A stretch of 64,000 bases of DNA from an uncultured virus (IMG/VR IMGVR_UViG_3300047409_000475) (lineage: Duplodnaviria > Heunggongvirae > Uroviricota > Caudoviricetes), in the IMG/VR virus record IMGVR_UViG_3300047409_000475, one strand, 5' to 3'. The stretch's first letter is position 1. Each line of letters begins with the position of its first letter. A program made the position numbers and the translations under genes. Of the stretch, positions 2,384 to 44,093 are shown piece after piece. The notes under the pieces were generated by a model. The model did no database searches. It worked only from the letters and a program-made list of their open reading frames with translations, and was not told the origin of the DNA.

Positions 2384-2637
2384 GCAGGAAGCCACGCAAG
2401 GCGAAGCCGATCTGGACGCCTGACGACATTACTACAGAGGAGGATGAGTATGCGGCCCGCCGTGGTGCGGTGTGGCGGCAACTTATTCAGGAGCCCGACC
2501 GTGACCTCGACACGATGGTGTTGGTGTGCGCCGAGTATGGGATCGATGTGACCAAGGATTACGTGCGTTCAACGAGGGCAAGATGGCGCAATACAATAGA
2601 AGTGCTTCGCGAAGAGGGCTTTCACGTCCCCGGATGA
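2380..2637 (+). CDS. Hypothetical protein
   Basis: ATGA overlaps at both ends. Confidence 0.7.
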   Translation: MSRKPRKAKPIWTPDDITTEEDEYAARRGAVWRQLIQEPDRDLDTMVLVCAEYGIDVTKDYVRSTRARWRNTIEVLREEGFHVPG

Positions 2638-4184: not shown

Positions 4185-4209
4185 TTTACCCTAGAGGAGG
4201 AATAAATCA

Positions 4210-6737: not shown

Positions 6738-7042
6738 ACGAGGAACGCGATCCCACCCCCGCCGAGCGCAAGCTTTATGCTGAGGTGTGCGCGGCGGTGC
6801 TCGACACGCTCGAACCCTTCTTGGATCACGCGCTGACCGTGCGTGACAACGACACCATCGATCCGTCGATCATCCTTGACGCCACGCTGCGCGCTGTCGC
6901 CGACATCGTCGTGGCCAATCACCACGGTGCGCCGCCGCACAATTGCAAATGCGAGGAGAACGCCGTGCGCAGCCTGCGCTACGCTCTCAAGGCGTCGCGC
7001 GATACCTTGGAGGCGCACGAACCGTCCCATGCGCAGCATTGA
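6734..7042 (+). CDS. Hypothetical protein
   Basis: ATGA overlap, MNEERDPT... Confidence 0.65.
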   Translation: MNEERDPTPAERKLYAEVCAAVLDTLEPFLDHALTVRDNDTIDPSIILDATLRAVADIVVANHHGAPPHNCKCEENAVRSLRYALKASRDTLEAHEPSHAQH

Positions 7043-18929: not shown

Positions 18930-19433
18930 GTGCGGTTCGACCTCGCCGAGGAGCGGGTGATCGACCACCCGCGCTGGGTGGTCGCCCAGACGCAGCCGCT
19001 GTGCGAGCAGCGTGCTACGCGCCACATCCTGCGGCAGGGCGGCGACGTGTTCGCGCCGTTCTTCTACGACCGCTGGGGCAAGTCCCTACGATTATTCCCC
19101 GGCTATCTGTTTGTGCACATCGAGGGCACGGCCAACTGGTTGCAGAACACGATGGGCGTGCTACGTGTGCTGTGCATGGGCTCCAGAGCCTGTGAGGTGA
19201 GGCCGAAGGTGATCGAGGATTATCAGGTGCTGGCCGACGAGGTGGGCGTCGTCTGCTTGCCAAGGGACTACTACCAGCCCGGCCAGTCGGTGCGTATCAC
19301 CGAGGGACCGTTCGAGAACCAGATCGGCATCGTCGAGGGCATGGACGCGCAGCAGCGCGTCGCCATCCTGCTGTCGATCTTGGGCCGCGAAAGCCGCGTG
19401 CATTGCCCCGTGACATTGGTGGCCGCTGTCTGA
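18930..19433 (+). CDS. nusG: NusG/RfaH-family antiterminator
   Basis: NGN domain (WVVAQT...LFPGYLFV) and KOW domain (GQSVRITEGPF). Confidence 0.9.
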   Translation: MRFDLAEERVIDHPRWVVAQTQPLCEQRATRHILRQGGDVFAPFFYDRWGKSLRLFPGYLFVHIEGTANWLQNTMGVLRVLCMGSRACEVRPKVIEDYQVLADEVGVVCLPRDYYQPGQSVRITEGPFENQIGIVEGMDAQQRVAILLSILGRESRVHCPVTLVAAV

Positions 19434-19881: not shown

Positions 19882-20354
19882 GCGCTTGGACGTTTGAATG
19901 GGACGACGCCGCCATCGAGCGCCTGAAGCGCCTGAAGGCTGACGGCCACTCGGCGGTCGATATCGCCAAGCTGCTTGGCGTCAGCAAGAACGCCGTCATC
20001 GGCAAGCTGTATCGCCTGAAGACCGTCGCCGGGCCCGTGCAGGTGGCGCGCACGAAGCGATCCTACCAAGCCAAGCCGCAGCCAAGCCGGAAGCAGAAGC
20101 AGGGCGCGGACAGGTGGTTCAAGATGGAGCCGCCGCCAGCGCCCAAGCCGCAGCAGCCCAATGTGCCGTTCACGCGCTCGATCCTTGAACTTGTGCACGG
20201 TCAGTGCAAGTGGCCAGAGGGTGACCGCGATTTCCTCTTCTGTGGTGAGCCGCAGGCAACGGGGCACGTGTATTGTGCCGCGCATGTCGAGCGTGCCTAC
20301 AACAAACCAAGGCATGGTCTGAGTGCCCATTTCATACGAACAACTCAAGGATAG
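19878..20354 (+). CDS. gcrA: GcrA-like transcription regulator
   Basis: WDDAAIERLKRL...SAVDIA...SKNAVIGKLYRL; CKWPEGD...FCG...YCAAH. Confidence 0.9.
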   Translation: MSAWTFEWDDAAIERLKRLKADGHSAVDIAKLLGVSKNAVIGKLYRLKTVAGPVQVARTKRSYQAKPQPSRKQKQGADRWFKMEPPPAPKPQQPNVPFTRSILELVHGQCKWPEGDRDFLFCGEPQATGHVYCAAHVERAYNKPRHGLSAHFIRTTQG

Positions 20355-21837
20355 CCGCAGCTTCGAGCTCTACAACGAGTGCGCGCGCTCCGAGGCAAGA
20401 GTAGACTTCTACTCGTTCCGCTGCCACATGCGCGAGGACATGAAGATCGGCTGGTGGTTGAAGGAGATATGCGACCACCTGCAGCGCTTCTACCTGCGCT
20501 TTATGAATGGTGAGCGGCCGAAGATGGTGCTGATGGCACCGCCGCAGCACGGCAAGACGACCATCGTCACCGACTTCATCGCGTGGGTGGCGGGCAAGAA
20601 CCCCTCGCTCAGGTGCCTGTTCACGTCCTACTCCGACGATCTCGGGCAGGGCGTCAACGTCAACTTGCAGCGCATGATGGACAGCGACAAATACAAGCAG
20701 GTGTTCGGGCCGCGCCTGCCAAGCTTCGGCCGCTCCATTGCAGGCATGCGCAACAACAACCTGCTGGAATACATGGGCGGGACTGGATCGTTCAAGGGCA
20801 GCTTCCGCAATACTACCGTGAACGGACAGGTTACTGGTAAGGGGCTGGACTTCGGCTTCATCGACGATCCGATCAAGGGCAGGCGTGAAGCAAACTCCAC
20901 GACCGTGCGCGACGCCACGTGGGCGTGGCTCACCGACGATTTCTTCACCCGCTTCTCCGACCACGCCGCGCTGCTGATGACGCTGACCCGCTGGCACCTC
21001 GACGATCCGGCCGGGCGCTTCCTGCAGAAATTTCCTGAGACGGAGGTGCTCGACTACCCGGCCATTGCCACCAAGGATGAGCTCCACCGCCGCAAGGGCG
21101 AGGCGCTGTTCCCCGAGTTCAAGTCGCTGGAGTTCCTCGAAGAGCGGCGGCGCGGCCTGAGCCAAGCCTCGTGGGTGTCGCTCTACCAGCAGAGCCCGAT
21201 CATCGCTGGCGGCGGCATGTTCCCCGTCGAGAAGTTCGCGGTGGTGAACGCGGTGCCGAAGAACGTCATCAAGTGGGTGCGCTACTGGGACAAGGCGGCC
21301 ACCGAGATGGGCGGCGCATACACGGCGGGCGTCAAGATGGGCAAGCTGCCGGACGGCGGCTTCATCGTCTCCGATGTGCGGCGCAAGCAATTGTCGGCAC
21401 TCGAACGCGAGCGCATGATCCTGCAGACGGCGCAGATGGACCGGCAGGAGAGCGGCCCCAACGTCTTGACCGTGGTTGAGCAGGAGCCGGGCTCAGGCGG
21501 CAAGGAGAGCGCCGAGCGCAGCGTGCGGATGCTCGCGGGCTACAAGGCAGAGGCCGACAAGGTCACCGACGCCAAGCACATCCGCGCCGATCCCTACGCC
21601 GCGCAAGTTCAGGCGGGCAACGTGTCGATCCTCTCGGCGATGTGGAACAAGGACTTTTTGAACGAACACGAGACGTTCCCGAATGGCACCTACGTCGATG
21701 TGGTGGACGCCGCCGCAGGCGCGTTCACCAAGCTGACGCTGGGCAGCACCTATGACAGCAGCATGCGGTGGGCGACGGGTGACGTTCCCGACAATGTTTT
21801 GGCACAGCAGCTAAACGGAGGCGCACGGCCATGGTAG
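20323..21837 (+). CDS. terL: Terminase large subunit
   Basis: MAPPQHGKT, IDDPIKG, TRWHLDD, LYQQSP, YWDKAA, DVVDA. Confidence 0.95.
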   Translation: MPISYEQLKDSRSFELYNECARSEARVDFYSFRCHMREDMKIGWWLKEICDHLQRFYLRFMNGERPKMVLMAPPQHGKTTIVTDFIAWVAGKNPSLRCLFTSYSDDLGQGVNVNLQRMMDSDKYKQVFGPRLPSFGRSIAGMRNNNLLEYMGGTGSFKGSFRNTTVNGQVTGKGLDFGFIDDPIKGRREANSTTVRDATWAWLTDDFFTRFSDHAALLMTLTRWHLDDPAGRFLQKFPETEVLDYPAIATKDELHRRKGEALFPEFKSLEFLEERRRGLSQASWVSLYQQSPIIAGGGMFPVEKFAVVNAVPKNVIKWVRYWDKAATEMGGAYTAGVKMGKLPDGGFIVSDVRRKQLSALERERMILQTAQMDRQESGPNVLTVVEQEPGSGGKESAERSVRMLAGYKAEADKVTDAKHIRADPYAAQVQAGNVSILSAMWNKDFLNEHETFPNGTYVDVVDAAAGAFTKLTLGSTYDSSMRWATGDVPDNVLAQQLNGGARPW

Positions 21838-24463: not shown

Positions 24464-27400
24464 ATGGGCGCACCGTTCGACGTTGCTGCGATCAAGGACA
24501 GCTTGATCAACCTCATGGCAGGCTTCGGCGTGCCGGGCCGCGACAAGGCGGCCAGCGGCGCGTCGTTCTGGCAGTTCACCCCGCTGTCGCAGTATGAGCT
24601 CGAAAGCGCCTACCGGGCCAACTGGATCGCTCGCAAGCTGATCGACATCCCGGCGCAGGACGCCACGCGCGCGTGGCGTGCGTGGCAGGCCGACACCAAT
24701 GTGGTGGAGCTGCTCGAAGAGGAGGAGACGCGCCTCGACGTGCAGGTGGTGCTGAAGAACGCCCTGATCATGTCGCGCCTCTACGGCGGCGCAGCCATCC
24801 TGCTCGGCGTCAAGGGCGCGAGCAACAACACGCCGCTCGACTACGAGAGCGTCGAGAAGGGCGGCCTTGAGTTCATCGCCGCCGTCTCGCGCTGGGCGCT
24901 CGGCACGGGTCCGCTGGTCAAAGACCCGATGGACCCGATGTATGGCAAGCCCGAGTATTTCACCCGCAACATGGACATCGGCCAGAACCAGACGGCGGCC
25001 GAGTTCCAGATACACCCGAGCCGCGTCATCATGCTGAAGGGCATGAACATGCCGGACCCGGTGATGCAGGGAGAAATCTGGGGCGACAGCGTGCTGCAGA
25101 ATGTGCAGGACGCGGTGCAGTCGGCCACCCTCGTCACCCAGTCCATCGCCACGCTGGTGACCGAGAGCAAGTTCGACATTATCAAAATCCCTGACCTGTC
25201 GCAGAACATCGCCACCGCCGAGTATCAGAACCGGCTCACGGCGAGGTTTGTGTATGCCAACTCGGTGAAGAGCGTGATCAACACGCTGCTGCTCGACAAG
25301 GAAGAGGAGTGGGAGCGCATCAATGCGAATTTCACGCAACTCCCCGATGTCCTGCAGATGTATCTCCTCATCGCCTCCGGTGCAGCAGACATCCCCGCTA
25401 CACGTATGCTCGGGCAGTCCCCTGCTGGACTACAGTCTACTGGAGAGAGTGATGTCCGTAACTACTACGACCGAATTAACAGCGATCAAACCAACGTATT
25501 GTCTCCCGCCCTTGCTGCTCTTGACGATGTATTGATCCGCTCTGCATTGGGCGACCGCGATCCTAGTCTGTATTATATCTGGAACCCGCTGTGGCAGATG
25601 CCCGCCACCGAGAAGGCGGCGGTCGCCAAGCAGAAGGCGGAAGCCTTCAACGTGGACATCATGGCCGGTGCTGTCGATGCCGAGGCGCTGCGCATCGGGC
25701 GGCAGAACCAGTTGATCGAGGACGGCACCTACCCCGGCCTTGAGCAGGCGCTGGAGCAACAAGACCAACTCGACATGGAGAGCATGCTGTCTCCCGAGGA
25801 GCAGGATGCGCAAGCGCAGGCCGAGATGGAGAAGCAGGCGGCGCTGGCTGGCCCCGGTCAACCGGGACAGCCGGGCCAGCCGGGCCAGCCGAATGGTGGC
25901 GGCAATCCGTTCCAGCGTGGCAAGGCACCGCAGAAGAAGGGCAACCCGTTCCAGAAGAAGGACAGCAGACCACTTGCCGTCGGCCGCCGCCTCAAGAAGG
26001 CACGCAGCACCCCGATCTTCAAGCGCCGCGCCGAATGGCTCGCCTCTGTGGCGCGCGATTACAACGAGTGCCATGACCCGGATACCGGCCTGTTCTGCGG
26101 CGAGGGTGGCACCAGCTACAGCGGCCCCTCGTCTGGATCGAGCGATCCGTATCAGTCCGAGGGCGCGACCGGCTTTGGTGCCGAGATCATGTCGGCGGCG
26201 CACGGCCGCCTGCACGGTGGCGAGCACGGCGTGTTCCGCGCTGAAGACCAAGGCATGGCCGACAAGCTGGAACGCGATATGGGGCGCGTGCTGGGCGAGC
26301 TCGACCGCTACAAGGAGAAGCCGGACAGCACGCGCATCAAGAACCTGATGGTCGAGCACCGCGACCTGATGAAGCAGATACGCCGCCTGCGCCTCGATCC
26401 GGGTGGCCTGCAAGGCTTCGGCAAGCCGGGCGGGCACCGCGACGTGGTGATCATTGGCGGCGGTCCCGCAGGCCTCAACGCGCTGGTCAATGCCGCCTAC
26501 GAGGGCATGGACGCCACGCTGCTGGAGGGCGGCTCGGACATTGGCGGCCAGTCACGCACCAGCGGCGGCATCAAGAACGTCGCAGGCACCAAATACGGGA
26601 CGCGTGGCAAGGCCTACTTCGAACGCCTCGCCAACCTCGCCACCGCCAACGGCGGCGAGATACGCACGCAGTCGAAGGTCCGCAACCTCACCTACGATCC
26701 GACTACCGGCCTGAAGACCATCCACCTCGACAACGGTGAGACGATCACTGCCCGCAACGTGGTGATCGCGACCGGCGTGCAGTTCAAGGTGATCAACTTC
26801 AAGGGCTCGGAGGGCACTGGCGTGCACTTCGGCGGCCACAACGATCTGCTCAACGAGGCGAAGGCGGCAGGCCGGGCGCAGAACCGCCCCGGCCACGTCG
26901 TCATCGTCGGCGGCTCGAATGGCGCGGCGCAGGCCGCGATCAGCGCCTCCAACGCCGGGCTGAAGGTCACCATCCTGTCGCGCTCCCCCATTGGCGGCGA
27001 GACGGGCAAGATGAGTGCCGATCCGTTGAAGGTCATTCGCGCCAAGCAGCGCACCAACATCAACGTGGTCGAGGGCGACGAGATCGCCGAGCTACAGCGT
27101 GACGCCGATGGCAAGCCGGTGGCCATCATCACCAAGGGCGGCAAGCGGCTGCCCGCCGACAGCGTCGGGCTGTATCTTGGACAGGCACCCGACACATCGT
27201 GGCTGCCCGACAGCATCGAGCGCGACGAGAAGGGTTACATCAAGGCTGATGTCGATCTGCGCTCCACCATGCCCGGCGTGTTCGTTCCCGGCGATGCACG
27301 CTCCGATCCGCCCGGCCGCGTGCAACGCTCCGGTGCCGAGGGCCAGACCTCCGTCGTCGGCGTGTTCAAATACCAGACCCAGCAGGCGCTCGCCTACGCA

Positions 27401-28810
27401 CGCGGCGACAACTCTCCGCACACCTCCGCATGGACGCGCCGCATCGCGGTGCCCGAGGAGGAGCAAGCGAAGCTCAACCAAGAGAACGAGCGGCTGGCGA
27501 GCGAGAACGAGAGCCTGCGGGCGCAGCTTGCCGAGCTCCGCAGGCGGCACGGTGATGCCGCGCGTGGGCGCTCGATACTCGGCGGCACAGACCCGCCCGA
27601 CAAGCCCGGCAAGATGACCTTCGCCGACTGGGATCAGTCGGTGGACATGCTGCACGCGCTCGACGCCGAAGACCCCTACATCACGCGCGGCATCGAGTAT
27701 GCGGCGGGTCAGCGGCTTGACCCGCTCAGCGGCCACGTCGATTACGAGGCTGGCGAGAGCTACAGCATCGATTACAGCCCCGACCAGCCGCGTGGGCAGC
27801 CAGACAACGCTGGCCAGTGGGGTCCGGGCGGTGGTGGATCGTCTGCCAAGTCGAAGCGCAGCGAGCCGTCGCAGAGCGCCAAGAGCAGCTACCGCGAGGT
27901 GCTGCAGACGCGCAAGAAGATCGGCAAGACACCGGGCGAGCGCGAGCACACCTACCAGAGCCTGCTGGAGAGCGGCGAGGGCAAGCACCCCGGCCACGGC
28001 TACTCGGGGCGCGCCGTCGAGGACGAGGACGGCATCATCCACACCGACGACGTGACGGATGTCGTGCGCGCGCTCTACGAGGGCCGCAAGGTCAACCTCT
28101 GCTCCGAGGACAAGGTCGCCATCGCCATCGACAAGGTGGGCAAGGTGGCCAGCCGCATGGCCAAGTCGAAGGGTGAGGGCAAGGACCGCACCTTCGATCT
28201 GTGCAACGTCACGGTCGAGGGCACCAACTTGTTCTGCGCCGAGAGCAAGGGCATCCCGCGTGTGAAGATGCCGCAGTTGAAGGGTGTGCCGAAGCCCAAC
28301 AGCCCCGCTTCGAAGCTGCCCGCCAACAAGAAGGGCGAGGTCGATCTCACGCAGGCGTTCCGCGATCACCTCGAAGAGATCGGCCTGACCATCGACGACA
28401 CCGACGTGCGTGCCGACCACCTGAAGGCCAGCCAGAACGAACTGAACGGTGCAAAGATCGCCGGTATGGCGAGCGCGATCCGCGCGGGCAAGATCGGTGA
28501 GGAGCGCATCTTCGTCAGCGACGACAACTACATCGTGGACGGTCACCACCGCTGGGCCGCCAACGTCGCGGTGGACTACGACGACAACAAGTCCGGCGAC
28601 ATCAAGATGCCGGTGGCGCGCATCAACGCCTCGATCCTTGAGCTCTTGGAGATCAGCAACACCTTCGCACGCGAGATGGGCATCCCGCAGGCGGGCGTCG
28701 GCGCAATGGTGCCGAAGGAAGAGCAGAAGCAGACAACCAAGAAGGATGCGGTGACGCACGGCTCCCACCGCCCTTTCGCTTCAACCCTTACACCGGCATC
28801 CGACTGGTAG
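24464..28810 (+). CDS. DUF1073-type portal fused to TrxB-like and ParB-like domains
   Basis: Portal motifs (YRANWIARKLIDIPAQD, RLYGG, IHPSRVI, GQSPAGL..TGESD, WNPLWQ) in aa ~1-440; GGGPAG, IATG, VFVPGD; IVDGHHRWAA. Confidence 0.9.
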   Translation: MGAPFDVAAIKDSLINLMAGFGVPGRDKAASGASFWQFTPLSQYELESAYRANWIARKLIDIPAQDATRAWRAWQADTNVVELLEEEETRLDVQVVLKNALIMSRLYGGAAILLGVKGASNNTPLDYESVEKGGLEFIAAVSRWALGTGPLVKDPMDPMYGKPEYFTRNMDIGQNQTAAEFQIHPSRVIMLKGMNMPDPVMQGEIWGDSVLQNVQDAVQSATLVTQSIATLVTESKFDIIKIPDLSQNIATAEYQNRLTARFVYANSVKSVINTLLLDKEEEWERINANFTQLPDVLQMYLLIASGAADIPATRMLGQSPAGLQSTGESDVRNYYDRINSDQTNVLSPALAALDDVLIRSALGDRDPSLYYIWNPLWQMPATEKAAVAKQKAEAFNVDIMAGAVDAEALRIGRQNQLIEDGTYPGLEQALEQQDQLDMESMLSPEEQDAQAQAEMEKQAALAGPGQPGQPGQPGQPNGGGNPFQRGKAPQKKGNPFQKKDSRPLAVGRRLKKARSTPIFKRRAEWLASVARDYNECHDPDTGLFCGEGGTSYSGPSSGSSDPYQSEGATGFGAEIMSAAHGRLHGGEHGVFRAEDQGMADKLERDMGRVLGELDRYKEKPDSTRIKNLMVEHRDLMKQIRRLRLDPGGLQGFGKPGGHRDVVIIGGGPAGLNALVNAAYEGMDATLLEGGSDIGGQSRTSGGIKNVAGTKYGTRGKAYFERLANLATANGGEIRTQSKVRNLTYDPTTGLKTIHLDNGETITARNVVIATGVQFKVINFKGSEGTGVHFGGHNDLLNEAKAAGRAQNRPGHVVIVGGSNGAAQAAISASNAGLKVTILSRSPIGGETGKMSADPLKVIRAKQRTNINVVEGDEIAELQRDADGKPVAIITKGGKRLPADSVGLYLGQAPDTSWLPDSIERDEKGYIKADVDLRSTMPGVFVPGDARSDPPGRVQRSGAEGQTSVVGVFKYQTQQALAYARGDNSPHTSAWTRRIAVPEEEQAKLNQENERLASENESLRAQLAELRRRHGDAARGRSILGGTDPPDKPGKMTFADWDQSVDMLHALDAEDPYITRGIEYAAGQRLDPLSGHVDYEAGESYSIDYSPDQPRGQPDNAGQWGPGGGGSSAKSKRSEPSQSAKSSYREVLQTRKKIGKTPGEREHTYQSLLESGEGKHPGHGYSGRAVEDEDGIIHTDDVTDVVRALYEGRKVNLCSEDKVAIAIDKVGKVASRMAKSKGEGKDRTFDLCNVTVEGTNLFCAESKGIPRVKMPQLKGVPKPNSPASKLPANKKGEVDLTQAFRDHLEEIGLTIDDTDVRADHLKASQNELNGAKIAGMASAIRAGKIGEERIFVSDDNYIVDGHHRWAANVAVDYDDNKSGDIKMPVARINASILELLEISNTFAREMGIPQAGVGAMVPKEEQKQTTKKDAVTHGSHRPFASTLTPASDW

Positions 28811-31800
28811 GAGACGAGTGGAACGAGGCCGACCACCCGCGCGGTCAACCCAACAACGCCGGGCAGTTCGGGCCCGGTGGCGGCGGCTCCAGCAGTAAAT
28901 CCGGTAAATCCGGTAAATCCGGCGGCAGCACCGGATTTGTCTCCCCGAATATCCACGACCTGCAGATCGAGCAGGCGGCCAACGCCATCACCTCATCAGC
29001 CCGTCAGAAGCTGCTCAACGAGGCCAGCCGTGAAATAAATTCGGCGCTTGGGCTGAAGGTCAACCAAGCGCCGGTCGTGGGCGCGTGGTCAGATGGTGCC
29101 GAGAACAGCATCATGCTCTCGTGGTCCGGCGAGAACCCCGCCGTCGAGCGCGCCGCCTTGGCCATGGAAGGCTACATCGCCGACCAGAAATCGGTGCTCT
29201 ACTTCCAGCCCGACACGCAGGCCGAGGAGTTCATCGCACGCTTCACCGCCGAGGGCGATGTCGTTGCCGTGCATGAAGATTTGTTAAAGCGCGGCCTTGC
29301 CTTCCACACCTTGCGCCCCACATCCGAGGGCACCGTGGTGTATGTCTACGGTCAGGACCAAGAGACACTCGACAAGGTAGGCGATGCGGCCAAGGCGCAC
29401 AACGCCGAGATGTCGTGGACGCCGGGCAAGGGAGAGTTCATTGGCACAAAGCTCGAAAACGGAGAAGCCACCGACCGAGAGCAAAGGGACGACGCCCGGC
29501 GCGTCTACGAAGACGAAATTAGTCGGGCCGCCGGGGGCGAAGTTGGACATGTCTGGGAGGACATACGGGATCGTTGGACCCGCCGACTTCAACAATCCCA
29601 AGATCAAGAAGTAGGCGACTTCAACCCCAACCACGATCCCGATACCGGCGAGTTCAGCAGCGGCGAAGGCGGCGGTGGTGGCGGCGACTTCACGGTCGCC
29701 TCGCCCGCGCAGCGCGTTCAATACAAGGCCAACCGCGCGGGCAAGATCGCCGAGTATGACCCGCGCTTTTTCACGCACCGGCCGCTGGTGCTGGAGTATG
29801 AGGGCAAGCCGCTGGACATGGGGCGCGACGAGCTCGTGCGAACCGCTCCCTACAATGCCGACCTGTCCAACGTGCCCACCTCGCCCGACATCATCTACCG
29901 TGGCATGTCGGCGGGCGAGTTCGACGCCATCCAGAAGACCGGCGAGATACGCGGCAGCGGCGAATACAATATCGGTGAGCAGCAGCGGGGCCTGACCTAC
30001 TACGGCGCAGACCCGCAGATCGCGCAGTCCTACGCCAGCAGCTTCGCGCCGCGCAAATACAAGCCAAGCTGGGATCGACCGGCCTACGTGGTCGCCATCC
30101 GCCGCCCGCCCCCGGAGCTCATCCGGCAAGTGTCGGGTGTCGGTGAGAACGAGGTGGGCGTGGTTGGTGCCGTGCCTGCCGACGACATCGTGGCGGTCTA
30201 CCGTGGCGACGTCATTGCCTACGTGCCCGAGGAGCACTACGCGGGCGGCAGCACCTCAGCCATGGTCACGCTGAACTGGAGCCAGCAGGCTCTGCCACCG
30301 CGCAAGGGCGGCGACGGTTGGAACCGCGCCACGGGCACGCGGCTGGAGAGCGAGTATGATGCCTCGCGCGCGGCTGTCGCCGCCACCGTGCACGACCTTG
30401 GCGTGGCGGAACCGGAGCAACTCGACCCGCTGTCGCAGCGCTCCAACAACGACAGCAGCACGCACCAGTTCGCCACGGCGCTGGTCGAGAAGCACGCCGC
30501 CAAGGTCATGTCGGAGCGGCTCGCACGCCCGATAGACCCGGCCGCAGTGCACGCCATGGGCAGCCGCCTGTGGAGTGACTGGCTCGACAGCACCGCACTC
30601 ACCAAGGGTGGGAAGCTGTTGCAGCTTGCCGCCGCCGAGGAATTGGGCGGCCGGTTCGATGAGCGGCGGATGATCGGATCGAAGCTGCAGGAATTGGTCG
30701 AGGCCGCCGACAAGGAGTTTGCCGATGTCGGCGGCTACGCGGGCGTCAAGGCCTACGTGCGCGGCATGTGGGAGACGACGCAATACCTGCTGGAGCGATC
30801 CGGCATGAACGATGTCGGCGTCTACCGCTCGATCTGGCAGCGGCCGGAGGAGCGTGGTCGCTCGGAGGAGTTTGCACACGGGGCACAGCGCTGGACGCGG
30901 CTGCCCGATACGCTGATCCGGCGCAACGGCATGGCATCGTTCTCGGCGGCGTCGAGCATGGCATCTTCGTGGGGGCAGGGCGACCGCACCGTGATCCGCG
31001 CCAAGGTGCCGCGCACCGCCATCGTGTCGATCCCCGCCTACGGCGGCAACGACACCGACGAGATGGAGCTCACCGTGGCGGGGACGGCGTGGCATGGCTG
31101 GGACGCGTGGCTGCGCTCGGCACCCGACTTCAACACTGTGCCGCTGGTCGAGCCGCCCGACAAGATCAAGGACGAGGCAGCGCCGCCTGCGGCATCGACA
31201 CTGCCTTCCGCCTCAGCCGGGGCACCGGCCGAGAACCAGTCGCTGCAGCCGGTCAACGATCCGAAATATCGCGCCATCGATCTGCAGCGCCTCGACACCG
31301 ACTGGCTGCGGCCCGCTGGCCGCGCCCGCGCCCGCCTCGCGCGCGACGATGTCTCAGGCTCCTTCGCCAGCAAGCAGGGCTCTTGGCTGATGGACCCGGA
31401 GACGGGCGAGCTCATCGGCTCCTCCAGCGAGGAGGGCGGTGGCGGCGGTGAGAGCGCAGCGCCAGCGCGTGCAGCTACACTGCCGAAGGCGGCGAAGACC
31501 AAGGCAGCGAAGGCCACGACCAGTCCGGCGGCGTCACCTCCGAAGAAGATCGAAGGCGTCAAGGCCGACAGCCACCCGGCCAAGATCAGCCCGAGCTACA
31601 CCAAGACCAACAAGCGCACGGTGAACAGCGAGGACACCTACGTCCCGACCGGCCTCGCCACCATGGCCAAGCACGAGCACAGCTACAGCCACAACATCGC
31701 CTTGCACGCCAACGCCGCCCATTATCCGGGCCTGCGCGCCGAGGATACCGAAGGCACCAACGCCGTGGTGGCGCGCAACATCGTTGACCGCATGAAGAGC

Positions 31801-32934
31801 AATCTGCGCTACCTGTGGACCAAGGCCACCGCTGCGCAGAAGACGGCGGCCAACTGGTATCGCGGCGCGAACAGCAGGATACGTGCCAAGGCCACGCAGT
31901 ATAAACTCGACAGCGCCAGCGTGGCGGGCGTCTATGCGGCGCTCAGCCCGACCAAGGACTGGGAAGAGAACATCTACCTCGCCGACCGTGTGCTCGACAT
32001 CTACCACACCAAGCAGCATTTCGAGTGGACGCAGGAGATGTCGGACACCGCTGAGCGCATCTGGCTGAAGGAGAGCAGCGAGAAGGACAGCCCCGAGAGG
32101 CAGGCCAGCATCGTCGCCAGTAACGCGGTGAAGACGGCGCAATGGCAGCGCCTGCGTGCGGCCAAGACGTTGTCGGCGCTGACCAGCCACCGCGACATGG
32201 CGATGTGGATACGCACCTACGACGAGACTTACGGCGACCCGGAGCAGGAGATCGTCTCGGGTGTGCTGCACGGGCGCGGTTACCGTGAGTTCCTGCCCGA
32301 CGGCACGCTCGGCGGCTTCCGCATGACCCAGCCGCAAAGCGGCAATCCCGAGAAGGCACTGGTGACGTGGCAGTCGATGACCATGACCGCCAACGCCATC
32401 GAAGCGATGCTGTCGGGTGGTGACCGCCACATCATCTCCGCTGCCGTGGGTGAGCGGCACAAGGTCAGGAATTTCTACAACAACCTCGTCGATCCCGATG
32501 GCACCGACGGCGACGTGACCATCGACAGCCACGCAGTGGGCGGCGCGTGGATGATGCCGACATCCGGCGTCGAGGTGGCCAAGGGGCACGCACTCGCCAC
32601 CTCGCCCGGTGAGGGTGCGCAGAACGCCAAGAACGGACCATCGGAAGGCATCTGGGGCACCTACGGCTTCTACGCCGACGCCTACCGTGAACTGGCCGGG
32701 GAGCTCCACATGCTGCCCGACGAACTGCAGGCGGTGCTGTGGGTGGTGAAGCGCGACGCCTTTGTTGACATGGCCAAGCAAGCACAGGTCGATATCCGCT
32801 CCATGTGGCAAAGCTTCCACAACGGTGACCGTTCGCTCGCGGAGACACACGACGCGGTGTGGCGTATCGTCGAGGAGGATCAGCAGCGCAAGCGTGACGC
32901 CGCTGCTGCCCGCTCACAGAGGACTGCAGAATGA
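28777..32934 (+). CDS. Continuation of the portal polyprotein in the -1 frame: unknown domain, two ART-like domains, HhH-glycosylase-like domain
   Basis: Frame open from 28642 with no ATG/GTG/TTG before 29077, yet it encodes a tag at 28813 that nearly matches the tag at 27770. Confidence 0.8.
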   Translation, partial: RFNPYTGIRLVGDEWNEADHPRGQPNNAGQFGPGGGGSSSKSGKSGKSGGSTGFVSPNIHDLQIEQAANAITSSARQKLLNEASREINSALGLKVNQAPVVGAWSDGAENSIMLSWSGENPAVERAALAMEGYIADQKSVLYFQPDTQAEEFIARFTAEGDVVAVHEDLLKRGLAFHTLRPTSEGTVVYVYGQDQETLDKVGDAAKAHNAEMSWTPGKGEFIGTKLENGEATDREQRDDARRVYEDEISRAAGGEVGHVWEDIRDRWTRRLQQSQDQEVGDFNPNHDPDTGEFSSGEGGGGGGDFTVASPAQRVQYKANRAGKIAEYDPRFFTHRPLVLEYEGKPLDMGRDELVRTAPYNADLSNVPTSPDIIYRGMSAGEFDAIQKTGEIRGSGEYNIGEQQRGLTYYGADPQIAQSYASSFAPRKYKPSWDRPAYVVAIRRPPPELIRQVSGVGENEVGVVGAVPADDIVAVYRGDVIAYVPEEHYAGGSTSAMVTLNWSQQALPPRKGGDGWNRATGTRLESEYDASRAAVAATVHDLGVAEPEQLDPLSQRSNNDSSTHQFATALVEKHAAKVMSERLARPIDPAAVHAMGSRLWSDWLDSTALTKGGKLLQLAAAEELGGRFDERRMIGSKLQELVEAADKEFADVGGYAGVKAYVRGMWETTQYLLERSGMNDVGVYRSIWQRPEERGRSEEFAHGAQRWTRLPDTLIRRNGMASFSAASSMASSWGQGDRTVIRAKVPRTAIVSIPAYGGNDTDEMELTVAGTAWHGWDAWLRSAPDFNTVPLVEPPDKIKDEAAPPAASTLPSASAGAPAENQSLQPVNDPKYRAIDLQRLDTDWLRPAGRARARLARDDVSGSFASKQGSWLMDPETGELIGSSSEEGGGGGESAAPARAATLPKAAKTKAAKATTSPAASPPKKIEGVKADSHPAKISPSYTKTNKRTVNSEDTYVPTGLATMAKHEHSYSHNIALHANAAHYPGLRAEDTEGTNAVVARNIVDRMKSNLRYLWTKATAAQKTAANWYRGANSRIRAKATQYKLDSASVAGVYAALSPTKDWEENIYLADRVLDIYHTKQHFEWTQEMSDTAERIWLKESSEKDSPERQASIVASNAVKTAQWQRLRAAKTLSALTSHRDMAMWIRTYDETYGDPEQEIVSGVLHGRGYREFLPDGTLGGFRMTQPQSGNPEKALVTWQSMTMTANAIEAMLSGGDRHIISAAVGERHKVRNFYNNLVDPDGTDGDVTIDSHAVGGAWMMPTSGVEVAKGHALATSPGEGAQNAKNGPSEGIWGTYGFYADAYRELAGELHMLPDELQAVLWVVKRDAFVDMAKQAQVDIRSMWQSFHNGDRSLAETHDAVWRIVEEDQQRKRDAAAARSQRTAE

Positions 32935-33243: not shown

Positions 33244-33705
33244 ATGCCAACGACCATCCCGTTCGAAGACGACATCTTGAAGCTCATCTTCCAAGCCGTC
33301 GCCATCCAAGGCATCGCCATCAACCACACGACCACGCCGCTCGCGTCCTACTACGTGTCGCTGTGCAAGGCGGACCCGATCCTGCCGACCAATCAGGTGC
33401 AGGACCAGTTGACCAGCGAGGTCTTCTACACCGGCTACGCGCGCGTGCTGGTGCCGCGCAATCCGCTCGGCTGGAAGGTGGGCGGCGGCGTGGTGACAGC
33501 GGTCAACGTCATCGCCTTCGCCATCCCCACCGACATCGTGCAACCGTTCTACGCCACGCACTTCGCCATCGGGGGAGCGGCCAGCGGAGCGGGCAAGCTT
33601 ATTGCGTCGGGCAAGCTGGTGCCGCCGATCCAGATCGCCAACGGCGTCGAGCCGCGCATCGACAACAAGTCGCCCGCCGCGCGCATGCCCGACGACTGGG
33701 TTTGA
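33244..33705 (+). CDS. Virion-associated beta protein
   Basis: YVSL..ADP, EV.YTGYARV, THFAIG pattern. Confidence 0.6.
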   Translation: MPTTIPFEDDILKLIFQAVAIQGIAINHTTTPLASYYVSLCKADPILPTNQVQDQLTSEVFYTGYARVLVPRNPLGWKVGGGVVTAVNVIAFAIPTDIVQPFYATHFAIGGAASGAGKLIASGKLVPPIQIANGVEPRIDNKSPAARMPDDWV

Positions 33706-33706
33706 G

Positions 33707-34651
33707 TTGTTCCCTGCGTCGGCACCACATGCGCGTCCGCGCCGCATCCTCAGCGATGCGGCGAAGAAGCGTGACCCGACGCAGTCGAACGACATCCGGC
33801 GGCGCATCTCCACCAATCTGCGGCAAGGGCTTGCTGCATGGCGCAGCCAGATATACGCGGCCGTCGTCGAGGCTGACCAGTTCGGCTACGTCTACGGCGA
33901 CGTGGACCGTGGCGACGCCGAGGCGCTGATCGAACGCCTCGACACCCTGTTGCACCGGGGAGCCGAGTTCGCCTTCACCCCTGCCGCCGACCAGATGGAC
34001 GTGATGCTGGGCACCGCCTACGCGCGCGGCGTGCGCAAGGCGGGGCAGGAGGTGCAGCCCGTGATGCCGCTCACCAGCAGCACCTTCGAACTGGCGCAGC
34101 GGGCGCGTGACGACCTTGAGAACATGCTGGAGGACCGCATCGCAGAGTGCTTGCGCGTCCTGCGCGAGGACGAGGATACGGCTGCCGCCGCCACCTCTTC
34201 GCGCTACCTGCTCTACACCGCGCTGCTGTTGCCGACCGTGATCCGGCCGCTGGTCAGCCGCCTCAACGCGCTTTCGACTACCAACGTTACTCGGGCATAC
34301 AACACCGGCAAGCTTGATGCCTACGAGGTGCTCGGCATCGACGAGGTGGGCGTGCAGGCCGAGAGCCAGCCTTCGTCCGGCAAGCAACTCTCCGAGTTGC
34401 TCGCTGAGCATGTGCGTGAGCAAGCGGCCGAGCAGTTGCTACACGAGCATCTTCCGAGCGAGGAGTTTTCCGAGCCGGTGCTGCCAGAGGGACAGCGCTT
34501 CCCAGAGTTCTATACGGTCGAGACGGTAGGGGATGACAGGGTGTGCGACATATGCGAGGGTTACGAGGGCAACACCTATACGCTGGCAGAAGCGCGGGAG
34601 TTGATCCCTGCACATCCTAACTGCAGATGCAGCATCGTTCCGGTGGCGTGA
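33707..34651 (+). CDS. MuF/SPP1 gp7-like minor head protein (start uncertain)
   Basis: TVGDDRVCDIC...IPAHPNCRC. Confidence 0.8.
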   Translation: MFPASAPHARPRRILSDAAKKRDPTQSNDIRRRISTNLRQGLAAWRSQIYAAVVEADQFGYVYGDVDRGDAEALIERLDTLLHRGAEFAFTPAADQMDVMLGTAYARGVRKAGQEVQPVMPLTSSTFELAQRARDDLENMLEDRIAECLRVLREDEDTAAAATSSRYLLYTALLLPTVIRPLVSRLNALSTTNVTRAYNTGKLDAYEVLGIDEVGVQAESQPSSGKQLSELLAEHVREQAAEQLLHEHLPSEEFSEPVLPEGQRFPEFYTVETVGDDRVCDICEGYEGNTYTLAEARELIPAHPNCRCSIVPVA

Positions 34652-34936: not shown

Positions 34937-35124
34937 GCAAACGATGGGTGTGGGGCCTGTTTGAGGTCGCCACTGCACTACTGTTCATCGCTGCGATTGT
35001 CTTCGTGACCGTCATGGTCACGATCTCTTTCTCCAACTGAACTGCTCGACATCATTGGGGTGAAGTGCCGTTCCGCGCGGGACGGCGAAGCCATGCCTAC
35101 CCACCAACAAGGAGGGCCCGCTTG

Positions 35125-36444
35125 ATGGCCAATAACTACGATGCACCCGACGTGTGCAGCGAAGACAGTCCCGACTACGACGAGGAAGCCTGCGCTGCGC
35201 GGCGCTCCGAGGACGCCTTCCCGCCAAAGGAGGAGAAAGCCTCGAACGAGGAGGCCGATCCCTGCGACGAGAGCTCCGACGCCTACGACGAGGAGGAGTG
35301 CAAGCGCCTGAAATCGGCGGCGAAGACCGGCGACAGCATGGCGTGGGTGGAGGATGCCGTCATCGACCGTGGCAACATGCGGATGACTGCCAACGGCTAC
35401 CTCGTTGCACAGGCGCGCGTCGCCCGCACCGGCATCCAGATTTACCACGGCGACGAGATCGGTGATCCGCGTCCCACCGTGCGCGTCTATCGGCCCGAGA
35501 AGACGGTGTTCGCACGCGACAGCCTGCACAGCTTTGGTCACAAGCCGGTGACGCTTGGGCATCCCCCGGAGATGGTCAACGCCCACAACTGGCGCGACTA
35601 CGCCGTCGGCCACGTGGACGGCGAGATCGTGCGCGACGGCGACATGGTCAAGGTGCCGATGATGATCACCGACGCCACCGCTATCGAGGCCATCAACCGG
35701 GGCGCGTCGCAGCTATCGGTTGGCTACGACGCACGGCTGGAGATCGTCGATGGCAAGACCCCGGACGGTGAAGCCTACGACGCCATCCAGCACGACATCC
35801 GGGTCAACCACATTGCTCTCACGCCAACGGCGCGCGGCGGCCCGCAACTGCGTCTCGGCGACAAAGGACAGAAAGGACAGAAAATGGAACGAGCCAAGCT
35901 TAATGACGAGCGCACCGTCACCATCGACGGCATCGAGTTGAAGCTGCCCGAGCCCAACGCCAGCATCGTGCAGCGCGGCCTGAAGAAGCTGCGCGATCAG
36001 GTGATCTCTCTCACCTCCGAGCGTGACACGCTGAGCGGCAAGGTCGCTGCCATGTCGAAGCAGGTGAAGGACAGCACCTTCTCCGACGCCGAGCTCGACG
36101 CGCGCGTGGCGCAGCGGCAGGCGCTGGTGTCACAGGCACAGAAGGTGCTCGGCCAGTCATGGCAGCCGGACGGCAAGCCCACCAATGACATCCGTCGCGA
36201 GGTGGTCGCCAGCAGGCTCGGCGACGACGTGGCGAAGGCGATGACCGACGCCGCCATCGAGGGCGCGTTCACGGCGGTCACCGCCACCGATGCATCGAGT
36301 GCACCACGCGAGCTCGCACAAGCGCTTGCCAAGCCCGGCTACGGCACCAGCAGCAAGCCCAACGCTGAACAGGCGTGGGAGGAGCGCGGCAAGCTGATGC
36401 GCGAAGCGTGGCGTAGCAACAACGGCTCGATGGTGAAGCAGTAA
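35125..36444 (+). CDS. DUF2213 prohead protease/scaffold
   Basis: ARTGIQIY, VYRP, PVTLGHP, QLSVGY, NHIAL...ARGG; coiled-coil C-terminus. Confidence 0.9.
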   Translation: MANNYDAPDVCSEDSPDYDEEACAARRSEDAFPPKEEKASNEEADPCDESSDAYDEEECKRLKSAAKTGDSMAWVEDAVIDRGNMRMTANGYLVAQARVARTGIQIYHGDEIGDPRPTVRVYRPEKTVFARDSLHSFGHKPVTLGHPPEMVNAHNWRDYAVGHVDGEIVRDGDMVKVPMMITDATAIEAINRGASQLSVGYDARLEIVDGKTPDGEAYDAIQHDIRVNHIALTPTARGGPQLRLGDKGQKGQKMERAKLNDERTVTIDGIELKLPEPNASIVQRGLKKLRDQVISLTSERDTLSGKVAAMSKQVKDSTFSDAELDARVAQRQALVSQAQKVLGQSWQPDGKPTNDIRREVVASRLGDDVAKAMTDAAIEGAFTAVTATDASSAPRELAQALAKPGYGTSSKPNAEQAWEERGKLMREAWRSNNGSMVKQ

Positions 36445-36475: not shown

Positions 36476-36940
36476 ATGACAGTCAATCTGCAGCCTACCT
36501 ATAGCCCAACTCAACCCATTGCTCTTCCGGGCATGCCCGCGACCGAGCATGGTTGGGACGGCGACAGCTACATCGTGGATAAGGCCGCCACCGTCAGGAT
36601 ACCCTTCGGTGTCGCCTGCTCCCTGAAGGTGGCCACTGACCCGCTGAGCGTGATCATCGGCGGCACCGCTGCGCTGTTCCGGGGCGTCAGCTACCGTGAC
36701 ATCACGCAGCCGCCGCGTGCCCCCGAGGGCTATCAGGCGGGCGAGAACATCTCGCTGATGTCGCGCGGCGACATCTGGGTGCGGGTGATTTCGGCGATCA
36801 CTGCTGGCGATCCGGTCAAGTTCGACGTGAACGGCATCTTCGGCGGCGCAGGCCTCAACATCGTGGCGAATGCTCAGTGGATGCGCGGCGGCGCAGCCAA
36901 CAGCCTTTGCCTGCTGCGCCTTCACAGCGTTGTTGCCTAG
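36476..36940 (+). CDS. Capsid decoration protein
   Basis: Between protease and capsid genes; IPFGVA, MSRGDIWV. Confidence 0.75.
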   Translation: MTVNLQPTYSPTQPIALPGMPATEHGWDGDSYIVDKAATVRIPFGVACSLKVATDPLSVIIGGTAALFRGVSYRDITQPPRAPEGYQAGENISLMSRGDIWVRVISAITAGDPVKFDVNGIFGGAGLNIVANAQWMRGGAANSLCLLRLHSVVA

Positions 36941-36997: not shown

Positions 36998-37936
36998 ATG
37001 CCCCGTCAATTCGTGGATGCACAGGCTGCGATGGCCTTTATGGTCAACCAAGCCGCCTATATTGAGAGCGAGGTCTACCGCACTCAGTATCCAGAAATCC
37101 AATACCCGACGCTCGTCCCCATCGACGAGAGCGCCCCCGAGTGGACCAAGTCCGTCACCTTCTACTCCATCGACCGGGTGGGTGAGGCGCAGTGGTTCCA
37201 CCACATGTCAACCGACATCCGGCTGGCTGATGTGCAGCGCTCGGCCTACGAACAGGGCATCGAGATGGCGGCCATCGGGTATCGCTACACGCTCGAAGAG
37301 ATCGGGCAGGCGATGATGATCGGCTGGAACCTCACCACCGAGCGGGCGGCTGCGGCCGTGCGTGCGGCCGAGGAGTTCACCGAGCGCGTCGCCATGGTAG
37401 GCGATGCCACCAAAGGCTGGACCGGCATCATCAACGCTCTCGGCGTCACCGCCACCACGGCGCAGGCCGGTGTGGGCGGCATCACGTGGGTGACGAAGAC
37501 CGCCGATGAAATCCTGCGCGACGTGAACAACGCGCTGGCCGACATCTACACCACTTCGAACACCATCGAGACGGCGAACACCATCCTGTTGCCGATCAAC
37601 CAATACTCGTTGATCAGCACCAAGCGGCTCTCCGACAGCCTCGACATGACGATCATGGAGTGGCTCACACGCTACAATGTTTACACTGCCCAAACGGGCC
37701 AGCCGCTCACCATCCGCGCAGTTCGTCAGCTTGCGACTGCAGGCGCTGGCGGCACGGCGCGCATGATGGTCTACCGGCGCGACCCGACGGTGTTGAAGAT
37801 GCACATCCCGATGCGGCATCGCTTCCTGCCGGTCTGGCAGACGGGCCCGATAACTTTTGACATCCCCGGAATTTTCCGTCTGGGCGGTGCCGAGGTGCGG
37901 CGTCCGGGCGCGGTGCGCTACGTGGACGGCATCTAA
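36998..37936 (+). CDS. Major capsid protein (DUF2184-like)
   Basis: IESEVYRTQYPEIQY, YTLEEI, RLGGAEVRRP, YVDGI; TAAGGAG RBS. Confidence 0.92.
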   Translation: MPRQFVDAQAAMAFMVNQAAYIESEVYRTQYPEIQYPTLVPIDESAPEWTKSVTFYSIDRVGEAQWFHHMSTDIRLADVQRSAYEQGIEMAAIGYRYTLEEIGQAMMIGWNLTTERAAAAVRAAEEFTERVAMVGDATKGWTGIINALGVTATTAQAGVGGITWVTKTADEILRDVNNALADIYTTSNTIETANTILLPINQYSLISTKRLSDSLDMTIMEWLTRYNVYTAQTGQPLTIRAVRQLATAGAGGTARMMVYRRDPTVLKMHIPMRHRFLPVWQTGPITFDIPGIFRLGGAEVRRPGAVRYVDGI

Positions 37937-43336: not shown

Positions 43337-43557
43337 TCGTCATGGGGTGTGGATGTGGACAGCGCCGCGAGATCGGCGCTCGCATGGTTACGGCGCTGCG
43401 CAACGGTGACAACGCCGCGCTGCGCGCACACATGGGCGAGATGGCTCGCTCGCTTGGCGACGACCTGCGCGTCGGTCGCGCGCAGATCAGCAGGAACTGG
43501 CAACAGGCCCCGAGGCCGATTGATCCGCCGCGACCGTTCACGGTGCGTCGCTTCTGA
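43333..43557 (+). CDS. Hypothetical protein
   Basis: MGCGCGQRR. Confidence 0.55.
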   Translation: MIVMGCGCGQRREIGARMVTALRNGDNAALRAHMGEMARSLGDDLRVGRAQISRNWQQAPRPIDPPRPFTVRRF

Positions 43558-44093
43558 TGCCGAAAGCACCAGCGCCGACCTCGCTGGTGCTGGGGATCGA
43601 TACGTCGGTCTTGCAGGCGCAATACACCTACGCGGTGACGATCAGTCAGAGCGAGATCGAGCGGGCGCTGCCCATCGAGGTGAACAACAGCGGCCACGTG
43701 CTGTTCAACGACGTGGTCACCGAGATCAGCCGCGACTTCCCCGATGTGCCGCCGCAGGTGATCGCGTCGGCGCTTACCAGCCGCGAAGCAACCGGCGTGC
43801 TGCCGAGCTTCAGCATCTCATCCGCCGAAGCGATGGTGACCTACGTCGAGTGGATCACCAGCCGCGACGAAAGGGTCTGCCCGATCTGCGGGCCGCGCGA
43901 CGGCGTCGTCTACCGGATCATCGACGTGATGGACATCTACCCGGCACACCCAAATTGCCGCTGCAGGCTTGAGCGGCTGGGCATCACCGACAGCATGCTG
44001 CAGGCTGGTGCCGAGCTCCTGCCCGACGCGATGCAGCGCGTTGCCGATGGTGTGCTCGAACAGTTCGGGCGCGTCTGGGGACGCTTCGGATGA
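43557..44093 (+). CDS. Second MuF-domain protein
   Basis: WITSRDERVCPIC...PAHPNCRC. Confidence 0.75.
   Translation: MPKAPAPTSLVLGIDTSVLQAQYTYAVTISQSEIERALPIEVNNSGHVLFNDVVTEISRDFPDVPPQVIASALTSREATGVLPSFSISSAEAMVTYVEWITSRDERVCPICGPRDGVVYRIIDVMDIYPAHPNCRCRLERLGITDSMLQAGAELLPDAMQRVADGVLEQFGRVWGRFG

Follow-up and report, generated by a model that had tools for sequence, protein, structure and literature searches.

In phage T4, Alt and the internal proteins carry a capsid targeting sequence that is cut by the gp21 prohead protease, and the ADP-ribosyltransferase (ART) is ejected together with the DNA. Programmed −1 frameshifts are known from phage structural genes such as lambda G/GT and T7 10A/10B, where a heptamer of the type X_XXY_YYZ near the end of the upstream open reading frame (ORF) yields two forms, short and long, of one virion or assembly protein at a set ratio. 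Polyvalent proteins were defined by Iyer 2017 (PMC5512222), in whose text PBECR, 2H and InPase domains are found fused to the portal, e.g. in the InPase-portal protein gp124 of Burkholderia phage BcepF1, and are read as packaged and injected; the text of Iyer 2022 (PMC9503650) added cases in which Nudix and ART domains are fused to head and portal proteins. Jamet 2017 (PMC5576092) described the MuF polymorphic toxins that temperate phages encode. Here we analyse 64,000 nucleotides (nt) from an uncultured virus (IMG/VR record IMGVR_UViG_3300047409_000475), a stretch that we call the window, and specifically its positions 24464 to 32934, where a portal domain is followed by a string of cargo modules with a recurring peptide tag at their joints and a change of reading frame on the way. 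The explanation that we favour, and hold to be probable as a whole, is a frameshift-joined, tagged portal-cargo chain that would be packaged, freed and ejected. The initial annotation of this stretch assumed that portals normally have a single domain, which passes over the published portal fusions to PBECR, 2H, InPase, Nudix and ART (PMC5512222, PMC9503650).

ORF1 encodes 1,448 amino acids (aa) and ends with the stop codon TAG at 28808-28810. A second frame of the + strand, ORF2, is open between 28642 and 32934. The long product computed for the case that the frame change is used has 2,823 aa, in agreement with the ~2,820 aa expected from the initial annotation, and the coordinates given there for the six blocks behind the portal each fall on a detected feature. 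The features of the portal-cargo gene are:

24464..28810, + strand: ORF1, short portal-cargo product (portal, flavoprotein, ParB-like block)
24464..25828, + strand: portal domain, PF06381/DUF1073 and TIGR01555
25850..25891, + strand: (GQP)4 stretch in an acidic, then basic linker after the portal crown
26057..26110, + strand: tag 1, variant H-D-P-D-T-G-x-F...GG
26441..27523, + strand: flavin adenine dinucleotide (FAD)/NAD(P)H flavoprotein of the thioredoxin reductase (TrxR) fold, without redox-active CxxC
27770..27838, + strand: tag 2, strong type
27854..28771, + strand: ParB-like module with invariant D-G-H-H-x-W
28771..28777, + strand: candidate −1 slippery heptamer C_CCT_TTC in the ORF1 frame
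28777..32934, + strand: −1 frame continuation, 1,385 aa
28816..28887, + strand: tag 3, strong type, upstream of every start codon in its own frame
28927..29661, + strand: F-V-S-P domain, predicted as tandem ferredoxin-like
29617..29685, + strand: tag 4, variant type
29740..30441, + strand: ART-like module 1 (invariant Arg, Thr-Tyr and Glu)
30442..31296, + strand: helical region, then ART module 2 (R / S-x-S / E-x-E)
31381..31449, + strand: tag 5, degenerate, with a Pro/Ala-rich linker ahead
31597..32931, + strand: DUF7178 module (PF23802), modelled with a HhH-GPD glycosylase-type fold

The ORF2 frame contains no ATG, GTG or TTG from 28642 until the GTG at 29077. Ahead of this codon lie tag 3 and also the initial 50 residues of the F-V-S-P domain, among them the invariant F, S and P. 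Inside the overlap of the two ORFs we identified an in-frame heptamer of the X_XXY_YYZ type, CCCTTTC (C_CCT_TTC), starting at 28771. Conservation of ORF1 stops at ...H-x-P-F, exactly at the heptamer, and the ORF2 frame upstream of ~28770 looks like off-frame filler. At 25 other overlapping ORF junctions, taken from the window and 12 related loci, the downstream frame has its first start codon before the upstream stop or at most 17 nt past it.

The frame break is real DNA. A second IMG/VR contig aligns without gaps and with 1 mismatch in 11,756 nt, and Logan contigs without indels were recovered from runs X2 (whole stretch), X5 (28760-28910) and X6 (28385-28835, with 3 substitutions); run X2 may be the source sample, and X5, X6 and X7 cover only parts of the stretch. 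It is true that the record is a metagenome assembly and that three of the four runs cover the stretch partly, but the second contig and the contigs of three runs agree, with no indel across 28760-28835, and in-frame portal fusions to the same modules occur in many independent samples. We regard an assembly or sequencing artefact, in the fusion or in the frame break, as extremely improbable, and the assembly chimera that the initial annotation had considered is not what we see.

Protein data suggest that the break recurs in relatives. In P0003, P0004 and P0005, whose portals are 78-85% identical, ORF1 ends at the same place, is kept to ...H-x-P-F and is divergent beyond, and the proteins P0132, P0129 and P0134 are called from internal methionines within the F-V-S-P domain (query residues 63, 63 and 29, respectively). 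P0132 and P0003 probably lie on one contig, as both are listed with a longest contig of 84,960 nt. Among 14 more distant IMG/VR loci, 13 have the F-V-S-P domain preceded in frame by a tag, and P0012 (2,327 aa) contains portal, F-V-S-P domain, DUF7178 and ParB-like block in one frame. A scan of Joint Genome Institute (JGI) metagenome contigs with the junction protein gave tag-length matches only. Moreover, the ORF2 modules retain every family-invariant residue, and the GC content at third codon positions (GC3) is 0.84. Because ORF2 has no start before tag 3 and its first domain, the heptamer is located where ORF1 conservation ends, no indel was found and the break appears to recur in relatives, we consider it likely, judging from sequence, that a −1 frameshift is used. 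It would give portal isoforms of 1,448 aa and ~2,823 aa. The fixed stoichiometry of cargo that the initial annotation derived from fusion to the portal is undercut by the frame change, since the latter would give two isoforms.

Three points weigh against frameshifting. RNA folding 3′ of the heptamer revealed no stimulatory structure (z +0.64 for 123 nt and +0.44 for 63 nt), such a heptamer is expected by chance about 0.2 times per 166-nt overlap (55 in-frame positions x 1/256), and conservation of the slip site would follow from the protein ends of the relatives alone, not from their DNA. If there were no frameshifting, only the 1,448-aa protein would be fused to the portal, and ORF2 would be translated alone, from the GTG at 29077 or from a non-canonical start near 28800, or would be recently disabled. 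The missing stimulator and a heptamer that is not significant by itself are consistent with this. The gene caller behind the protein database indeed placed the start of ORF2 at GTG 29077 (P0123), but this start drops the first 50 of the 245 domain residues, including the invariant F-x-S-P, and leaves a perfect tag untranslated. There is also an AGGAG at 28810-28814, but no ATG, GTG or TTG in the right frame follows it. L018 and P0124 show that cargo can be encoded in free-standing genes with their own leaders; on the other side, the protein data indicate a break apparently common to diverged relatives, and ORF2 keeps the family-invariant residues and a coding GC3. We find separate translation or recent loss of ORF2 unlikely.

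The portal itself is complete and continues into a (GQP)n linker, as initially described. PF06381 matched aa 44-396 with E 2.1e-102 and 343 bits (cut-off 33.8), covering model positions 1-356 of 357, TIGR01555 scored 260.8 bits against a cut-off of 196, and the (GQP)4 linker is located at aa 463-476 (nt 25850-25891). The portal also belongs to PHROG 146, and its solved relatives in PDB are the Pam3 and E217 portals. No second portal-like match was found anywhere in the window, and the position of the PF06381 portal, in a head module with terminase, DUF2213 and capsid genes, is the one expected of a portal gene. The C-terminus of portal proteins points into the capsid interior.

According to the initial annotation a related tag opens each block. 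We found it at five of the six joints after the portal, the exception being the joint between ART-like 1 and ART 2, where there is no tag. The tag has 20-30 residues of the form W-N-E-x-x-H-P-R...G-x-F-GGGG. The strong tags at 27770-27838 and 28816-28887 are matched by a hidden Markov model (HMM) with i-E 4e-12 and 8e-15, the variant tags (H-D-P-D-T-G-x-F) at 26057-26110 and 29617-29685 have 48 nt in common with 71% identity, and the tag at 31381-31449 is degenerate. Strong and variant tags interchange at the same position in orthologues (portals 78-85% identical), so they represent one element. The HMM of the strong form matched 137 of the 183 collected relatives. The tag is more frequent than chance would allow: in ORFs of at least 200 aa, 41 of the 81 fetched loci together have 83 occurrences of a strict pattern on the + strand, and their minus-strand ORFs have none; four of those loci are copies of DNA from the window itself. 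While the peptides of tags 2 and 3 are ~70% alike, their DNA is only 59% identical, which indicates selection on the peptide and not on the DNA. Within the window, the HMM scan confined the tags to the portal-cargo gene and found none in the protease, capsid or MuF genes. With the tag as query, tblastn matched none of 50,697 cultured-phage records, although the low-complexity filter may hide the tag.

The initial annotation assigned the release of the modules to the DUF2213 protease. The DUF2213 protein of the window has a His, a Ser and a His invariant in 15 relatives, which we assume is what a serine prohead protease should have, by comparison with the HK97 and T4 enzymes. Complex prediction for the DUF2213 domain with the tag peptide, using two alignments, ended with a score of 0.02 against a mark of 0.32 and counts neither way. 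As the tag is found with several protease families, it is not specific for DUF2213, which argues against a site for a single protease and for a more general role. The tag may be a handling signal of this class of cargo, marking a flexible joint for docking and/or cutting during head maturation. A bolder version would make it a general cargo-handling peptide of tailed phages, which loads and frees any cassette whatever the anchor (three portal families, MuF, protease-scaffold or none) or protease, while in this lineage a conserved −1 frameshift in the portal gene sets the share of long chains among the 12 subunits; we put this forward tentatively and rather doubt it. Such a tag would resemble the loading peptides of encapsulins or the T4 targeting sequence, but it would be modular and internal.

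The initial annotation proposed a survey of long DUF1073 portals for variable tagged cargo, and such proteins were found. We identified 212 PF06381 portals of 796-2,534 aa (E<=0.001) among 7,997 scored candidates, many of them on 80-88 kb contigs. The cargo of the 120 listed long portals comprises approximately 37 Acb1, 15 ADPrib_exo_Tox, 9 Zeta_toxin, 8 Pyr_redox_2, 5 CDO_I and 5 DUF7178 domains, and relatives also fuse this portal to Nudix and others. A search for longer proteins, which we rate as weak evidence, found no portal fusion above 2,534 aa. Two side observations belong here. Acb1 (PF23474, a phosphodiesterase acting against the cyclic-oligonucleotide-based anti-phage signalling system, CBASS) follows the portal in those ~37 of 120 proteins (e.g. 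P0035, aa 588-730), and would represent a large set of head-anchored anti-signalling enzymes. In P0156 (1,977 aa), the portal is matched in two Pfam pieces with a weak intein-splicing match between them (PF14890, E 2e-4), possibly an intein in a portal-cargo fusion.

A local domain survey showed the same few modules in many orders with tags (t) between them, for example Portal-t-ParB-t-ART2, Portal-t-FVSP-DUF7178 and t-FVSP-t-flavo-t-ParB. Tags and modules are also present on a lambda-type portal (L008, 2,643 aa) and on Mu-type portals, which makes three portal families in all, on MuF, fused to DUF2213 (L065, L071), adjoining S78 protease-capsid fusions (L013, L014) and in free-standing proteins. 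L018, whose portal is 85% identical, has a different first module on the portal and encodes ART-like and DUF7178 cargo as separate genes (L018:9974-17328), in each of which a short leader and a tag come first. An H-E-x-x-H motif is present in one of them and, as read by eye, also in P0132. As cargo sits on varied anchors or is free, covalent attachment to the portal appears to be one option among several, with the tag as the constant. The ORF L002:6805-9582 from a cargo locus of a related phage gave a sub-threshold match to the ATLF metallopeptidase (23.4 bits, cut-off 27.4) and is probably a zincin-type peptidase of the kind common in polyvalent proteins.

Regarding the modules of ORF1, the first is a flavoprotein matched by PF07992 at aa 660-960 (nt 26441-27343, E 3.3e-34). 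It aligns with the TrxR 7jyp across residues 3-312 (E 3.7e-21) and has the TrxR fold with two dinucleotide-binding domains. None of its cysteines matches the C-A-A-C of the reductase in this alignment, and the TrxB equivalog TIGR01292 scored 102.9 bits, below the cut-off of 343. The protein is thus TrxR-like in fold only, and the initial description as TrxB-like holds for the fold but not for the redox CxxC or the equivalog score.

The second module was initially described as ParB-like. The block exists and contains D-G-H-H-R-W at 28535-28561, with D-G-H-H-x-W invariant in 15 sequences, but its match to the family is weak. The PDB profile search gave short, weak matches on the D-G-H-H motif to 1vk1 and to 'free serine kinase' chains (5x0j and relatives) with E 0.07-0.4, all of which we take to be ParB/Srx-fold proteins. 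ParBc_2 matched one of the 15 members of the block (E 0.3), and P0049 matched ParB_N with E 0.008, short of the cut-off. Since these matches are weak and short, 'ParB-like' stays a lead. A distant homologue of the block (27% identity, E 4e-5) is contained in gp60 of Pseudomonas phage H66 (3,787 aa), whose record describes a structural protein verified by mass spectrometry, which bears only indirectly on a place of the present protein in the virion; no tag was found in H66 gp60.

The −1 frame begins with a domain that opens with invariant F-V-S-P and is predicted to have a tandem ferredoxin-like fold (predicted local distance difference test, pLDDT, 92.7). The initial annotation proposed fold checks per module; models were obtained for this domain and for DUF7178, but Foldseek found nothing at E<=0.001 for either, in the case of the F-V-S-P domain against PDB. 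In the VIA search, the phage S-adenosylmethionine (SAM) lyase 6zm9 (Z 7.6), 7ock (Z 7.2) and the SAM-AMP lyase 9gab (Z 6.6) tied with generic ferredoxin-like proteins, and for this reason we do not name the domain a SAM lyase. ESM Atlas had no usable match, a tblastn search against the 50,697 cultured-phage records had none, and in GTDB genomes the domain was found in just three small contigs of metagenome-assembled genomes, which offer no hint of a host. In BFVD we recovered 17 matches at E<=0.001, mostly within proteins above 800 aa from uncultured phages, some of them named 'large polyvalent protein associated domain', 'RelA/SpoT' or 'inorganic pyrophosphatase domain' proteins.

Two ART-like domains were initially proposed, and the second of them is well supported. 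ART-like 1 has an invariant Arg in 29890-29910 and an invariant Glu in 30142-30162, and R54, T86, Y87 and E138 are invariant; hhalign against ART profiles gave weak probabilities of 5.2% and 6.4%, the PDB sequence-profile search had no match, and the ESM Atlas rows were all below 0.9, with PARP and Tox-ART-HYD1 as leads only. In ART 2 the motifs are located at 30820-30837 (Arg), 30934-30957 (S-x-S) and 31057-31077 (E-x-E), and R129, S166, E207 and E209 are invariant in 27 sequences. A direct Pfam search with 30400-31299 found no family at E<=5. Comparison by hhalign with a profile of PF03496-certified relatives gave a probability of 88.9% and E 2.4e-6 over 89 columns, with Arg, S-T-S and E-x-E aligned; the two control profile pairs gave 0.1% for the ferredoxin-like domain against the PF03496-type profile and 0.4% for ParB-like against ART-PolyVal. 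By these sequence comparisons ART 2 is a clear R-STS-ExE ADP-ribosyltransferase of the PF03496-like R-S-E clade.

The last module, DUF7178, was initially read as glycosylase-like, and its predicted model (pLDDT 88.4) is in line with this. The 21 best rows in a VIA structure search of all against representatives consist of 20 DNA glycosylases and the queuine-salvage enzyme DUF2419, the latter presumably with the HhH-GPD fold as well; Z ranges from 8.8 to 4.6. The best row is 3n0u (Tm1821; Z 8.8, root-mean-square deviation 3.8, 186 of 209 residues aligned), followed by DUF2419 (Z 8.4), AGOG (Z 7.0) and then Mag1, EndoIII, OGG1, MutY and AlkA. The conserved H-K-V-R-x-F-Y-N-N and D-V-T-I-D-x-H, judged by eye and unaligned, resemble what we take to be a helix-hairpin-helix and a catalytic Asp. 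PDB sequence-profile searches with DUF7178 and ART 2 returned portals only.

These observations can be arranged into one putative mechanism. The only portal gene detected would form the 5′ part of a polyvalent cargo gene. Ribosomes slipping by −1 at C_CCU_UUC (28771-28777) would make the ~2,823-aa form beside the 1,448-aa form, and the long form would add the ferredoxin-like domain, the ART-like block, the R-STS-ExE ADP-ribosyltransferase and the HhH-GPD-type glycosylase-like domain. Both isoforms may mix in the portal dodecamer and, because portal C-termini face inward, the cargo chain would become part of the prohead at the portal vertex. Its modules are mobile cassettes, each led by a tag, and at the tag joints they would be cut apart or set free in some other way as the head matures. 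Ejected together with the DNA, the enzymes would then act on host DNA, proteins or defence signals. A cargo role fits what is seen in the family, as sister portals carry Acb1, ADP-ribosyltransferases, zeta-type kinases and Nudix.

Besides the points raised against the frameshift, several results are unfavourable to this mechanism. The ParB-like block and ART-like 1 have no profile confirmation. For DUF7178, the Foldseek search was empty at the threshold given above, and the model is helical with Z-scores in a range where common helical arrangements can mislead, so we term it glycosylase-fold-like and not a proven glycosylase. The tag co-occurs with at least three unrelated head-protease settings (DUF2213, S78 protease-capsid fusions and lambda-type heads). 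No H-[ED]-x-x-H motif was found in ORF1 or ORF2, so the polyprotein has no HExxH peptidase of its own.

This last result, together with a cleavage site and a peptidase that are only putative, would also agree with a chain that is not ejected but remains attached to the portal or works inside the producing cell, for instance on phage DNA during packaging, or serves as an inner body or plug. Three modules look DNA-related (glycosylase fold, ParB-like block and ARTs), and the portal is the DNA entry channel. Some ARTs modify DNA. However, these modules are also found fused to MuF and to DUF2213 or standing alone as tagged proteins, and sister portals bear the plainly host-directed Acb1 (anti-CBASS), zeta kinase and Nudix. 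Such fusions are also read as injected in the texts of PMC5512222 and PMC9503650. We give a non-ejected chain little credence, and packaging followed by ejection is the course that we prefer.

The window is part of an uncultured contractile-tailed soil phage of ~84.7 kb; for P0123, the ORF2 protein of the window itself, the longest contig listed has 84,681 nt. The head module around the cargo gene comprises:

20323-21837: large terminase (TerL), upstream of the portal-cargo gene
33602..34651, + strand: MuF / SPP1 gp7-type minor head protein, a separate gene, assigned by C-terminal motif matches alone and of uncertain true start
35065..36444, + strand: DUF2213 protein, PHROG 530 'head maturation protease'
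36476-36940: cement protein, ahead of the capsid gene
36998..37936, + strand: major capsid protein, PF09950

The genes downstream of the head module encode a contractile tail and a Mu-like baseplate. We also noted several other ORFs in the window. A replication/recombination block at 902-8735 contains a DnaB-like helicase, an SNF2 helicase, a PDDEXK nuclease and an SbcCD-like pair (Metallophos and AAA_23 ATPase). Just upstream of the packaging genes, at 18930-19433, there is a NusG-like protein with a KOW motif (PF02357, PF00467), which may be a phage factor for transcription elongation or antitermination. A 153-aa ORF (33244-33705), placed between the cargo gene and MuF, matched the podophage GP4 fiber I protein gp80 family (PF23140, E 3e-7), an odd location for a fibre-type protein. 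A small ORF in the neck/tail region (43557-44093), apart from the MuF gene, matched the C-terminal part of the MuF model (PF04233, E 1.7e-7) and DUF7243. Past the baseplate genes, an ORF of more than 1,569 aa (59291-64000) is cut off by the end of the window; no family matches it convincingly, and it presumably encodes a tail fibre or some other giant protein.

If the tag is a loading or release signal, it would allow injected phage effectors to be recognised in metagenomes by sequence, and it would be a tool to load foreign proteins into phage heads. Acb1, ARTs, kinases, a glycosylase-fold domain and unknown domains are already connected by it. As cargo modules, DUF7178 and the F-V-S-P domain are widespread and have no assigned function, and a glycosylase-type fold delivered with the DNA would suggest an unstudied early attack on host DNA or nucleotides. 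A frameshift in the portal gene would, if true, be a new way to dose virion cargo.

Compared with the known systems, the locus resembles T4 Alt and the internal proteins in having a short peptide ahead of an enzyme, which in T4 is linked to prohead loading and is removed in maturation. The T4 signal is short and N-terminal and is carried by free proteins that bind the scaffold core, whereas the tag described here is longer, both internal and N-proximal, and found with several protease families, its roles in targeting and cutting being putative. In contrast to lambda G/GT and T7 10A/10B, the frameshift would sit in the portal gene, and an RNA stimulator was not found here; a literature search for portal and programmed frameshift gave no obvious case among the titles listed.

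With polyvalent proteins and portal-fused effectors, as far as their published texts describe them, the locus has in common several conflict-type domains, a gene in the head module, direct fusion to the portal, and ART and ParB-type hubs. Polyvalent proteins have 2-15 effector-type domains and are encoded among virion or packaging genes; this gene lies among such genes and has six post-portal modules if the frameshift is used, or two in ORF1 alone. The zincin-like, self-processing metallopeptidase (MPTase) that is a common, not obligatory hub of polyvalent proteins is missing from this polyprotein. The portal fusions in the texts of Iyer have one added domain, in contrast to six modules and ~2,400 residues past the portal here. 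In the text of PMC5512222, 'linker' and 'glycine' have no occurrence and no joint motif or frame change is mentioned in the passages searched; in the text of PMC5576092, 'motif', 'junction' and 'boundary' do not occur, and the passages searched there and in PMC9503650 have no joint motif either.

The MuF toxins, according to the text of PMC5576092, are similar in combining a head-internal anchor with a variable C-terminal toxin or enzyme, and the MuF toxin gene adjoins the portal gene. They differ in that MuF is the anchor, usually of one toxin domain accompanied by immunity genes, whereas here the portal is the anchor, MuF has a small gene to itself and we noticed no immunity gene. The PB1-like portals (Pa193 / E217 gp19, 765 aa), described in the text of PMC11456595, belong to the same portal family; in phage Pa193 residues 529-765 of the 765-aa portal have no density in the virion map, an extension of ~240 residues compared with ~2,400 here. 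As far as our searches went, the recurring joint tag and the apparently conserved mid-gene frame change were not found in the literature, and portal-fused injected effectors were already published. For the latter reason the gain is one of mechanism and scope and not of kind, and the locus is a large, tagged, frameshift-joined variant of the known class of portal-fused effectors.

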